Shown: positions 17,812 through 21,986 of the stretch, in pieces
Layout of the letters: each line of letters opens with the position of its first letter
Position numbering within the stretch: the first letter of the stretch is position 1
Source of the DNA: Promethearchaeota archaeon
GTDB lineage: Archaea > Asgardarchaeota > Lokiarchaeia > Sigyniarchaeales > SOKP01
Direction: 5' to 3'
NCBI GenBank assembly: GCA_016839705.1
Contig: JAEOTR010000048.1
Coordinates: forward strand, 24,779-88,778
Length of the DNA: 64,000 nucleotides
The notes under the pieces: model-generated
Seen by the model: the letters and a program-made list of their open reading frames with translations, nothing else
The model's database searches: none
Told to the model about the DNA's origin: nothing
Position numbers and translations under genes: made by a program

Positions 17812-18150
17812 CTAAAAGAATTTCTTAACATCAAACCGATAAGCTGCTCTTGTTAAGCCAACATAATTGTCCGTAATCTTGTAAAACAGTTTTTCATTAA
17901 CAAGTTTTTTCTGTAAATAGTTATTTTTAATCAAATGATTTAAAGAATTAATCATGGTTCCTAACGTAACCGCGCCAACAAATCCATGTTGTTTCTTGGT
18001 AACCCTAATTAATTCAAGTTCAGAATGCCATTGTCCATCAAGAAGAGCCCTTAAAATATCATTCTTAATAGGGGTTTTTATATCTTTAATTTTATTGAAC
18101 AAAACTGAATATATAGGATTATAATATCTTTCCTGCTCTTTTTCTTCCAT
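17812..18150 (-). CDS. small winged-helix-like putative DNA-binding protein
   Basis: ILRALLDGQWHSELELIR...TLGTMINSL...YLQKK...FYKIT fits the wHTH topology. Confidence 0.55.
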   Translation of the reverse strand: MEEKEQERYYNPIYSVLFNKIKDIKTPIKNDILRALLDGQWHSELELIRVTKKQHGFVGAVTLGTMINSLNHLIKNNYLQKKLVNEKLFYKITDNYVGLTRAAYRFDVKKFF

Positions 18151-18341: not shown

Positions 18342-19463
18342 CTAAAGTAAATTAGGTGGAATCCCCTCATCAAAATATTTTACACGGGATATCCAGTTTT
18401 CTGAAAATTCCGGGATCTTTGCTAATATAGAACCTCCAATCCATACAGAAAAAGTTCTCTCTTGAGGAGCAATAATTCTTACGCTCTGGTTTTTTTTCTT
18501 CCTCCTGGCTAATTCAAGTTCTAATTCCTGATACATTCTTGATTTTAAATTAGGAAACATTGAAGAACCACCACTTAAAAAAATATTATTTAATAATTCT
18601 GGTCGAATATCCAAATCACAAGCTTCTATTACATCCAAAATTGCCACCGGTAGGGAATCCTCCTCTAATTCAGGAGATGGATTAAATAAAAGCTCTGGAA
18701 CTATAAACCGTTCATTATGCAATGAGATTGTTGAACCATCTGGTAAAGAATAGTCTTTATTATACTGTTCACTTCTTTTCAAATCCTCTTTATAATCTAA
18801 AGAAACAAAACAAGCTTTTTCTTTTAAAACTCTTACTAATTCTCTTCGAATAGAAGAATCAACCGACCAGCCAATAGATTCCAAGATTTTTTCCATATAA
18901 TGAGTCAGTACCCTACCCCCAATTTCTAGAATTCTTACCGCATGATTTAATTTATATCCTTCATAAATGGGTACAATTCTGGTATTGCTATCTCCAATTT
19001 CAATAATTAAACCTGTTTGAAATCCCCCTGAATATAAAGTAAGCATCGAATCTAAAACAGGATAAAAATTCATACACTGAAGTCTTCCTAAAAAAAGTTC
19101 AAAAATTTTTTCCAAATCCTTACGGGGGAATAAGGGATGGACGGCTAGTAGGACATTAACTAGAGAGGGATCAACTCTTAAATTATAGAAAATATAATCC
19201 ACAATGTTTTCAAAATGCTTCCAATCAATAATAATCCCTTTTTCTATTGGATGAAAAATCTTATAAAGGCCAATAGATTGGATTTCATCTCCTACATAAA
19301 GTTCATCTTCTCGACTTTTAGCAGTTGAATAATCAATGCTTACACTTTGATATTTCGGTTTCCCAACCATCGTTAAGAAAACTTGAGCTGGAGAATCCTC
19401 TCCTGCAAATCCTATTTTAGTAGAAAATTGGCCAATATCAATAACAACAGTAAGATTTACCAT
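18342..19463 (-). CDS. actin-family protein (divergent Asgard actin/Arp)
   Basis: VVIDIGQFSTKIGFAGEDSP, LYVGDE, HPIEKGIIIDW, IVPIYEG, KEKACFV, YSLPDG, ERFIVPELLF, LSGGSSMFP, SVWIGGSIL; 373 aa, colinear with actin. Confidence 0.93.
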   Translation of the reverse strand: MVNLTVVIDIGQFSTKIGFAGEDSPAQVFLTMVGKPKYQSVSIDYSTAKSREDELYVGDEIQSIGLYKIFHPIEKGIIIDWKHFENIVDYIFYNLRVDPSLVNVLLAVHPLFPRKDLEKIFELFLGRLQCMNFYPVLDSMLTLYSGGFQTGLIIEIGDSNTRIVPIYEGYKLNHAVRILEIGGRVLTHYMEKILESIGWSVDSSIRRELVRVLKEKACFVSLDYKEDLKRSEQYNKDYSLPDGSTISLHNERFIVPELLFNPSPELEEDSLPVAILDVIEACDLDIRPELLNNIFLSGGSSMFPNLKSRMYQELELELARRKKKNQSVRIIAPQERTFSVWIGGSILAKIPEFSENWISRVKYFDEGIPPNLL

Positions 19464-19799
19464 TCTTCCCTTCGAAAATTGCTTATTATTTAATTTCTAA
19501 TTAATATTATAATCCTAATTATTTTAATTAGTATTACACTACCAAAACTTTCTAGAAGACCTTTAATATAAAACTCTTTTTTTTCCTATAAAAAATCTTA
19601 TACTATCAATACGATAAATTTATCTAAAAGTACATTAAAATAATTGATATTTTTCCTTCAAAGGTTTCCCCTCAACTAAATCATAAATAACAAGCGTACT
19701 ATAATACATGTCCAAAAATGTTAAGATATATATTAAAAGGAGTTTTAAATGATATTACAACAAATGAAATTCTAATTCAAATGAATTAAATAAGTGATT

Positions 19800-20354
19800 T
19801 TAAGTATGGAAAAAAGATACATACCTCTTTTTATAATGCTGGGATTTATTATCATTCTGATTATAACCGCATTTGTCGCTGCTGTTTTTGGCGTTCCGAT
19901 CATAGCATTAGATCAGTCAGAAATCTCGATCGCATCATTTGATTATTGGTCATTAGGACATTTCCTATGGGGAGTTGGACTTTTCGTTATATTCTTCACA
20001 TTTGGTTGGATTATCAAAAATTTAACGGATAGCCCAAAAGATCCTATTAATGAACCAGAGGTTAGAAGCTTCATCATATATTGGATAATTATTCTTATTA
20101 TTGCGGGTCTTTGGGAAGTTGTTGAAAATACAATTCTTCATATGGTTAGTATCAAAGTTAAATTCGACAGTGCGGCAAATATAATAACTGATATAATTAC
20201 ATGGGGCATTGGTGGATGTGTGAGTTGGTATATGACAGATCTAATGTTTTTAAGCGACAAATATCTCAGAGCTTATTACCTCTATGGATTTATGTGCCTC
20301 GCAATGGGTATAATCATATTCGTATTCTTTGGTTTTGTTACAACTAATTACTAA
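19800..20354 (+). CDS. integral membrane protein, DUF2585-like
   Basis: DYWSLGH...WEVVEN...DSAANIITD motif series in a multi-TM protein. Start uncertain (GTG 19794 or ATG 19806). Confidence 0.55.
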   Translation, partial: LSMEKRYIPLFIMLGFIIILIITAFVAAVFGVPIIALDQSEISIASFDYWSLGHFLWGVGLFVIFFTFGWIIKNLTDSPKDPINEPEVRSFIIYWIIILIIAGLWEVVENTILHMVSIKVKFDSAANIITDIITWGIGGCVSWYMTDLMFLSDKYLRAYYLYGFMCLAMGIIIFVFFGFVTTNY

Positions 20355-20555
20355 CCTCATTTTTTTTTCTTTCGTGGTGGATTTCATTTAAAATAGGAAA
20401 ATTTATTCTTTAGTTACAAGAATGCAATTTTCAGTTTTTTCGAATAAAAAGAATAAGATTTGAAAAGCTTTTCTAATGAGTATGTTATATTTCTGTTGAT
20501 TTTATTGCTTTGGAAATATAATAGGTTGAACTAGACAGCCCATTCGATGGATTGA

Positions 20556-21287
20556 TTATTCTCCGCGCATAATCTTTTTCAAACGGTTAAGCTCATCGAG
20601 CATCTCATCACGAAGAGAGCTTAAACCACCCCCCGTTTGAGGGGCTGCTGCTGCCGGAGGTGCTCCAGGTGTTTGAGGTGGACTAGCTGGAGGTGTGGCT
20701 CGTGGACCACTTGGAGGTGCGGCTGGTGGACCACTTGGTCTTTTCGCGAACGCAGGAGTTGCTGTTGGAGGTATAGGTGGTGCACCAGAGCTTGGAGCTT
20801 TAGGTGGTGCACCAGAGCTTGGAGCTTTAGGTGGTCCCGATGGAGGTAATTTTGGAGCAGGTGGTAGACTGCCGGCTTTCGGTGGGCCGCTAGGCGGTGC
20901 ACTCGGTGGCGCACTAGGAGGCCCTGCAGGAGCCTTAGGCGGGCCACCACTAGTAGGAGGTACTGGTGCTGCGGTTAGTGATGCTGGTGCTGTTGTTGGT
21001 GCTGCTTGGCTTTCAGCACCCCCACTTAAAAGAGAAAACAAAGTACTAGCTGCTGCAGTTTTGGCGGTCCCCGATGATGAGGCAACAATCTTTTTCGAGG
21101 AAGTACTAACAGTTTGGACGTCTTCTCCAACAGTAATTTCCTTTAAGTCTTTTTGGGCTTTTGATAATGACTTGATAAAATCATTAATTCCTTTAACTGT
21201 TTCTCCTAAGTCATCAGCGAGGCTAGTTAAGCCTTTTTTCATAAAATTAATAACACGTTCGATCTTTTTTTGTTCTTTTGAAACCAC
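20556..21287 (-). CDS. coiled-coil / proline-rich / C-terminal amphipathic helix (WH2- or VASP-like) protein
   Basis: N-terminal heptad helix, a ~125-aa P/A/S/G tract, and terminal GGGLSSLRDEMLDELNRLKKIMRGE. GTG start preceded by GAGGA. Confidence 0.75.
   Translation of the reverse strand: MVSKEQKKIERVINFMKKGLTSLADDLGETVKGINDFIKSLSKAQKDLKEITVGEDVQTVSTSSKKIVASSSGTAKTAAASTLFSLLSGGAESQAAPTTAPASLTAAPVPPTSGGPPKAPAGPPSAPPSAPPSGPPKAGSLPPAPKLPPSGPPKAPSSGAPPKAPSSGAPPIPPTATPAFAKRPSGPPAAPPSGPRATPPASPPQTPGAPPAAAAPQTGGGLSSLRDEMLDELNRLKKIMRGE
20774..20835. repeat. 27-bp tandem repeat (2.3 copies) encoding PPKAPSSGA
   Basis: taggtggtgcaccagagcttggagctt twice, followed by taggtggt. Confidence 0.9.
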
Positions 21288-21710: not shown

Positions 21711-21986
21711 GTGTTCAAAATACCAAAACGAGAACTTTTTATTAAGCGGGTCTATGAGATCGTCAATGAGCTTAAAATCCCATTAATTGATGAGAGAGTA
21801 TATGACAAAGTAAATTTCAATACGGGAGCTTCAATCGCTAACGTAATTTTTAGATTCGAGGAAGATGAGTCAGTAATCCGAGGGTTTCTTGGTCTTGCGG
21901 AATATTTTCACACTGTGGTGATCAAGAAAAAAGACGAGTTCTATATTCCGCATGCTTCAATTTTATTTCGTTTGCTGAGCGCATGA
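21711..21986 (+). CDS. small hypothetical protein
   Basis: 91-aa ORF with GTG start after AATAG, protein-like composition, followed by a T10 tract. Confidence 0.7.
   Translation: MFKIPKRELFIKRVYEIVNELKIPLIDERVYDKVNFNTGASIANVIFRFEEDESVIRGFLGLAEYFHTVVIKKKDEFYIPHASILFRLLSA

Follow-up and report, generated by a model that had tools for sequence, protein, structure and literature searches.

Known docking elements and the Pro-rich protein PRO

The WH2 motif (PF02205), which is carried by WASP/WAVE, by the GAB part of Ena/VASP and by thymosin beta-4, consists of a short helix that leads by way of a linker into an extended LKKT/V segment. Arcadin-2 of Pyrobaculum, a regulator of crenactin, is an example from the archaea of a C-terminal helix occupying an actin cleft. 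The MIM1 tails of Vps2, CHMP1 and IST1 are read by the MIT domain of Vps4, while ZipA-type tethers of the FtsZ C-terminal tail join a transmembrane anchor, through a long flexible P/Q-rich linker, to a small docking element. The present analysis concerns a stretch of 64,000 nucleotides from a Promethearchaeota archaeon (contig JAEOTR010000048.1; hereafter the window) and, within it, a gene for a Pro-rich protein, PRO, which ends in an amphipathic helix and lies near the gene for a divergent actin paralogue, ACT. The reading favoured here, to which a probability of roughly 0.55 is attached, is that PRO is a soluble member of an undescribed adaptor family, spread across the Asgard archaea, whose proteins bear a putative docking helix on the tip of a flexible arm.

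Comparison with these systems reveals partial likenesses. The tail of PRO resembles WH2 in combining a short amphipathic helix with an L-K-K-hydrophobic end behind a Pro-rich tract, and in being borne, as one copy or as a tandem array, by proteins that are otherwise unrelated. It departs from WH2 in that E228, E232 and R235 are essentially invariant but have no WH2 counterpart while the second Lys is free, and in that it gives no profile match, has a helix predicted to run on through LKKIM and is accompanied by no central/acidic (C/A) region. Unlike WASP/WAVE, PRO lacks a central/acidic Trp region for the Arp2/3 complex; unlike Ena/VASP, it contains no Pfam domain (neither EVH1 nor the EVH2 order of G-actin site, F-actin site and C-terminal tetramer coil), and its coil is N-terminal rather than C-terminal. 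Arcadin-2 is likewise archaeal, has its C-terminal helix as the functional end and is encoded in a cluster with an actin homologue; however, it shows no sequence similarity to PRO, has neither a Pro-rich arm nor modular reuse, and its linkage to actin is tight. With MIM1 tails PRO shares a terminal leucine-rich helix with a basic end, a flexible and often Pro-rich linker, and the use of one docking motif by several proteins, but its tail fails the MIM1 consensus, reverses the charge of the key Arg, and comes without an ESCRT-III core or ESCRT gene context. ZipA-type tethers recall the membrane-anchored proteins that bear the same motif as PRO (described below), whose transmembrane anchor, long flexible Pro-rich linker and small docking element would likewise keep a cytoplasmic partner close to the membrane, although the tethers form an unrelated family in which the docking element is a globular domain instead of a helix on the tether.

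PRO is a conserved protein with a predicted helical head and tail

PRO is encoded by an open reading frame (ORF) of 243 residues at 20556..21287 on the minus strand, with a GTG start preceded by GAGG 8 nucleotides upstream. Its C-terminal end reads GGGLSSLRDEMLDELNRLKKIMRGE. Because orthologues are found in 37 of 41 related genomes and both termini are kept where the arm has diverged, at an overall identity of about 40%, PRO is a genuine gene and no accidental ORF. Among 1.84 billion representative proteins, a profile search recovered only 66 relatives. The source organisms are represented by metagenome-assembled genomes of Promethearchaeota (Loki-type Asgard archaea). No Pfam family matched the whole protein or its N- and C-terminal pieces, and sequence and profile searches of the PDB with PRO, its last 30 residues and a 24-column motif profile returned designed coiled coils and insignificant matches only. 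A search of the ESM Atlas recovered the protein's own Promethearchaeota cluster alone, and the literature searched describes neither an Asgard WH2 nor the PRO family.

An AlphaFold2 monomer model was built on an alignment of 20 orthologues. Its parts, with the per-residue confidence of the model (predicted local distance difference test, pLDDT), are as follows:

21129..21278, minus strand: N-terminal heptad helix, residues 4-53, pLDDT 80-91
21018..21068, minus strand: short hydrophobic helix AAASTLFSLLSG, residues ~74-90, weakly helical in the model at 74-87
20631..21005, minus strand: disordered Pro/Ala/Ser/Gly-rich arm of ~125 residues, residues ~95-219, pLDDT ~45-60, without secondary structure
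20841..20867, minus strand: LPPAPKLPP motif in the arm, residues 141-149, local pLDDT up to ~72
20559..20630, minus strand: terminal helix motif GGLSSLRDEMLDELNRLKKIMRGE, helix at residues 222-240, pLDDT 80-94

The heptad periodicity of residues 5-53 scores 11.2, compared with 6.5 ± 0.8 for shuffled sequences (0/2000 shuffles as high), and conservation of this helix reaches other classes (L084, L086, L087). The initial annotation, made from the letters of the window, had proposed both an ORF ending in LKKI-MRGE and a layout of heptad coil, Pro-rich arm of about 125 residues and terminal helix; the start signals bear out the former, and the model and the shuffle test the latter. In the alignment the arm, which contains GPPK/APPS units, is free in length and repeat number, whereas the N-terminal helix, the AAxxLFxLLxG helix, the LPPxPK(L/M)PP motif and the tail are held. 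Residues A79, A80, L83 and L87 of the short helix are invariant among the 20 orthologues, and L141, P142, P145, K146, P148 and P149 of the arm motif are invariant or nearly so throughout the order. All four elements that define a PRO-type protein (heptad helix, AAxxLFxLL helix, Pro-rich arm and terminal LRxEMLxELxRLKxIM helix) align order-wide, and the head and tail can be aligned across classes. In L. ossiferum, PRO corresponds by position, between UYP44327.1 and UYP44329.1, to UYP44328.1. A typical PRO gene is also present on a contig labelled 'Candidatus Nanopelagicaceae bacterium' (L115, DATKTW010000083.1), which is probably a mis-binned Asgard contig.

Conservation and chemistry of the terminal helix

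The tail is invariant among the 20 orthologues at L225, R226, E228, M229, L230, E232, L233, R235, L236, K237, I239, M240 and G242. A wider survey of the motif covered 48 distinct instances from five or more architectures, over which L225 and E232 are invariant, with R226, E228, M229, L230, L233, R235, L236, K237 and M240 close to invariant. Variation is confined to positions 227, 231, 234, 238 and 241, on a single face of the helix, and therefore about 220 degrees of its circumference are constrained. The conservation of the tail, which the initial annotation had named as a check, is extreme for the helix as a whole but does not extend to every residue of LKKI: L236 is kept in 47/48 instances, K237 in 40/48 and I239 in 36/48, whereas the second Lys, K238, is kept in 23/48.

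The hydrophobic residues of the terminal helix follow a 3-4-4 spacing, giving a straight stripe with the invariant E232 inside it. Such a pattern is more in keeping with a helix seated in a specific groove on a protein than with membrane binding or a canonical heptad coil. In the AlphaFold2 monomer model, which cannot show a bound state, the tail is predicted to form one 19-residue helix, unbroken through LKKIM and with no Gly or Pro breaker before LKK.

Reuse of the motif on unrelated Asgard proteins

A strict back-translated pattern of the motif is found in 140 of 400 genomes of the phylum (0 matches for the reversed control), and a motif profile detects it in 325 of the 400, including lineages that have the membrane-anchored type only. 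The source genome holds a single copy. Elsewhere the motif is borne by membrane proteins of the single-pass type, in which a juxtamembrane coil is combined with a Pro-rich linker (P0049, P0051; L044-L046; L089, L091, L092), by polytopic membrane proteins (P0058, L090), by zinc-ribbon proteins (P0055, P0062) and by Ras/Roc-type GTPase fusions with a Cys-rich domain (P0037, L066). Further proteins carry two or three tandem copies followed by the same Cys-rich domain (P0040, P0046, P0060, P0064). The motif stands at the end of a long Pro-rich linker in three unrelated architectures. The Cys-rich domain has the pattern CPxCG...NH..YL.DFYF...GIPCCxCFKK.F and no Pfam match (P0040, P0046, P0060, P0064, P0037; L066:1176-2369; L070:1206-1670); some of these proteins have a Ras/Roc GTPase domain ahead of it or a longin-like region behind it.

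Gene neighbours of the membrane-anchored type comprise housekeeping genes, with RpiA and KH-domain proteins among them, and one Arf GTPase, and nothing cytoskeletal. The adjacency to ribose-5-phosphate isomerase A recurs in three Asgard families (L089, L092, L088). A Ras GTPase gene adjoins PRO in one genus and, together with the GTPase fusions, hints weakly at a recurring small-GTPase theme. The families in which the motif is missing (f21, f24, f25, f15 and f10) all possess actin, and four of the five possess the ESCRT-III domain Snf7; presence and absence therefore do not point to the receptor of the helix.

P91 is the most widely conserved neighbour of PRO

One further gene accompanies PRO across large evolutionary distances:

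21711..21986, plus strand: P91, a 91-residue alpha/beta protein, divergent from PRO in this window

P91 sequences from across the class share 51-93% identity, and the gene is present in 61 of the 64 species loci with enough flank. It adjoins a PRO-type gene in at least nine families belonging to several classes, namely in f1, f3, f5, f6 and f7 and in f2-g5, as well as outside the class in f19, f26 and f27, the two genes being divergent, tandem or convergent depending on the lineage. AlphaFold2 predicts, at a pLDDT of 90.7, a helix followed by a beta-alpha-beta-beta-beta unit, for which no convincing fold relative was found (Foldseek best E 0.19; VIA-align best Z 4.3). P91 has no PDB profile match and no Pfam family, its ESM Atlas search returned its own Promethearchaeota cluster alone, and its 495 homologues are every one labelled "hypothetical protein". 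No fused form occurs among the longer proteins searched, and a search of the C-terminal domains of tandem-motif proteins with the P91 hidden Markov model (HMM) gave no match. The L. ossiferum P91 is UYP44135.1.

P91 was not found in f11, f13, f16 and f18, which have the membrane-anchored motif type only. It therefore tracks the PRO-type head and not the tail motif, suggesting a joint function of P91 and the N-terminal region of PRO.

P91 is intact in this window. In several genomes of the same and the sister genus the gene is about 30 nucleotides longer and contains an in-frame TAG, TAA or TGA, the insert lying in the alignment directly after the ELFI codons (L039:6990-7300; L041:5430-5750).

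A proposed model for PRO as a docking adaptor

In the proposed mechanism, the terminal helix would insert into a groove on a single, strongly conserved protein of the Asgard archaea, termed here the hub. Contact would be made through the stripe formed by L222, L225, M229, L233, L236 and M240, flanked on one side by the invariant E228, E232 and R235 and on the other by R226 and K237. The N-terminal coil of PRO may oligomerize, bind the P91 encoded next door, or both, so that PRO would bridge a P91-containing assembly to the hub, while its membrane-anchored relatives would tether the same hub to the membrane.

Several observations weigh against this model. A helix with one acidic and one basic flank would also suit a coil that pairs with itself in parallel. 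The evidence from gene neighbourhood is correlative and comes from genomes whose relatedness makes them non-independent samples. In addition, linkage between P91 and PRO is missing from most of f2 and from f4, and P91 occurs without a detectable PRO in f31-g76.

What is new here is a conserved, unannotated and putative docking motif in about 80% of the sampled Asgard genomes, distributed over soluble, membrane-anchored and GTPase-linked proteins, together with a deeply conserved PRO-P91 gene pair whose P91 member has no known fold relative. Once the protein that reads the helix is named, it would become apparent how membranes, small GTPases and a conserved cytoplasmic hub, possibly the cytoskeleton, are connected in Asgard cells; the P91 and PRO proteins of the cultured L. 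ossiferum offer handles for doing so. Actin, either Lokiactin or ACT, is the leading single candidate for the putative hub, although as a specific identification it is an improbable one.

The actin paralogue and its gene block

ACT and the genes around it are the following:

18342..19463, minus strand: ACT, divergent actin paralogue of 373 residues, Pfam Actin 9e-89
17812..18150, minus strand: 112-residue protein downstream of ACT, adjoining ACT in all loci of the genus; no Pfam match
19794..20354, plus strand: 186-residue multi-pass membrane-protein ORF between PRO and ACT, specific to this genome

ACT shares about 43% identity with yeast actin, and most residues of the hydrophobic cleft are retained. 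The genome encodes three actins, ACT among them; the best-scoring of the three (441 bits) lies on another contig. The arrangement described in the initial annotation, with an actin gene about 1.1 kb downstream of PRO on the same strand and a gene on the opposite strand between them, proved correct (the distance is 1092 bp). The intervening 186-residue ORF has no homologue in the fetched related loci or elsewhere in the source genome, and no Pfam match. Its position is occupied in most relatives by a PIG-L/LmbE deacetylase gene of 248 residues, on the same strand as PRO and ACT, and the order PRO then PIG-L is also seen in a different family (L032).

The order PRO, ACT, 112-residue gene is present at every locus of the genus, and the block reaches other genera of family f1. 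Synteny was sampled at 80 species-level loci, 78 of which were scored for ACT: within f1, ACT lies at most 3 kb downstream of PRO in 73 of the 78, and the PIG-L/LmbE gene stands between the two in 49 of these loci. The sister family possesses both PRO and ACT, 44-100 kb apart; family f4 has PRO but no detectable ACT orthologue; and no actin gene was seen beside PRO in the fetched loci of families other than f1. Since gene order breaks up outside f1, the linkage has the appearance of one ancestral arrangement that a single family has kept, and not of a tight pair. The synteny with actin that the initial annotation had named as a check thus holds within f1 but was not seen beyond it in the loci fetched, and even within f1 PIG-L usually separates the two genes.

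Is PRO an actin-assembly factor?

The initial annotation had read the tail as a WH2-like motif and PRO as a minimal WASP/VASP-like factor. In the fuller form of this explanation, the tail would bind G-actin, the arm would recruit profilin-actin and the coil would oligomerize, with ACT or Lokiactin as the target. In its favour, the coil, the Pro-rich arm and a terminal amphipathic helix ending in L-K-K-I are as described, PRO shares a block with ACT in f1, and ACT has preserved most of its cleft residues. The tandem motif copies of some relatives recall tandem-WH2 nucleators, the extreme conservation of the motif suits a very conserved receptor such as actin, and arcadin-2 shows that an archaeal C-terminal helix can serve in this way.

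However, searches with the Pfam WH2 model at E<=10 found no match in the last 40 residues or in the whole of PRO, HMMER filters being known to drop many matches above ~0.1, and no WH2, MIM or arcadin chain of the PDB was matched by the last 30 residues or by the 24-column motif profile. The predicted helix continues through LKKIM where a WH2 motif would have its linker, and the pattern of invariance described above, with a variable second Lys and fixed E228, E232 and R235, is not that of WH2. By the tests run, the tail is not a recognisable member of the WH2 family. Nor does PRO belong with WASP/WAVE or Ena/VASP: it ends in ...LKKIMRGE and, as the initial annotation itself had remarked, has no acidic/Trp tail for binding Arp2/3. 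The gene neighbourhood also speaks against this explanation, given the PIG-L gene that usually intervenes, the absence of linkage outside f1 and the presence of PRO without ACT in f4. Published work adds two further difficulties: Loki profilins are reported not to bind VASP polyproline (PMC8410842), and when Lokiactin was co-immunoprecipitated from L. ossiferum, the proteins with significant enrichment were limited to one profilin, five gelsolins and an Arf GTPase, with no protein of this kind listed (PMC13716822). On balance, a minimal VASP/WASP-like role for PRO is doubtful, and the locus serves as a warning that an LKK-ending helix beside an actin gene is insufficient for calling homology to WH2 or to nucleation-promoting factors (NPFs).

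A broader proposal, that the terminal helix is a putative pan-Asgard actin-binding plug, is also rather unlikely. If it were true, soluble PRO with P91 and the membrane-anchored carriers would represent the first archaeal actin-membrane tethers or elongation-type factors, and would correspond, whether by independent origin or as an ancestral form, to the eukaryotic combination of polyproline tract and WH2 motif.

Self-association, MIM1 and membrane binding

Turning from actin to the helix itself, its charge pattern, with E228 and E232 on one flank and R226 and K237 on the other, is that of a parallel coiled coil. The terminal helix could accordingly be a homo- or hetero-associating coil like the tetramerization domain of VASP, and PRO a multivalent scaffold or mesh former; tandem copies could then form intramolecular bundles, and the strong heptad coil at the other end of PRO would supply further valency. 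Against this, the helix has only about 19 residues, its hydrophobic positions are spaced 3-4-4 and not in heptads, and the invariant E232 sits within its hydrophobic arc. Its sequence is moreover near-identical across classes and unrelated architectures, whereas self-pairing coils drift freely, and the single motif copy of the source genome means that hetero-pairing would be without a partner there. Self-association of the tail is for these reasons quite unlikely, and the docking of the helix into a groove of another protein is preferred.

The tail has also been considered as a MIM1-like motif for the Vps4 MIT domain, in which case LPPxPKLPP would act as a second site of MIM2 type, in the manner of IST1. 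MxxxLxxLKK at the C terminus, after a Pro-rich linker, bears a loose resemblance to MIM1 tails. Leucine-rich MIM1-like tails have been reported for Asgard proteins of the Vps2/24/46 class (PMC7240154), and the ESCRT-III protein of the source genome ends in KLQDEIDKLRKELES. A scan of the genome with the regular expression (D/E)xxLxxRLxxL(K/R) does not, however, return the PRO tail, which has a Glu where MIM1 has its conserved Arg, and conversely the motif HMM does not detect the tail of the source genome's ESCRT-III. PRO has no Snf7 domain, no ESCRT gene was seen near it in any lineage looked at, and Snf7 is still present in lineages that lack the motif. A MIM1 function is accordingly very improbable. 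A membrane-binding amphipathic helix is hardly credible: the straight 3-4-4 stripe is typical of helices that lie on a surface, but this one has an invariant Glu within its hydrophobic face and several conserved acidic residues, and the motif is found, too, at the end of proteins already held in the membrane by transmembrane anchors.

The ESCRT complement of the source genome can be described briefly. MIT matches occur in two very large repeat proteins, and no Vps4-type MIT domain scores above the Pfam cut-off. The only Snf7/ESCRT-III match in the assembly is the one mentioned above (G000 C88:53715-54365, plus strand), with no ESCRT genes beside it. A 438-residue ORF on another contig (G000 C83:2708-4024, minus strand) has a Pro-rich stretch followed, near its C terminus, by EDPHLTLRLRELKGIV, which does fit the MIM1 regular expression.

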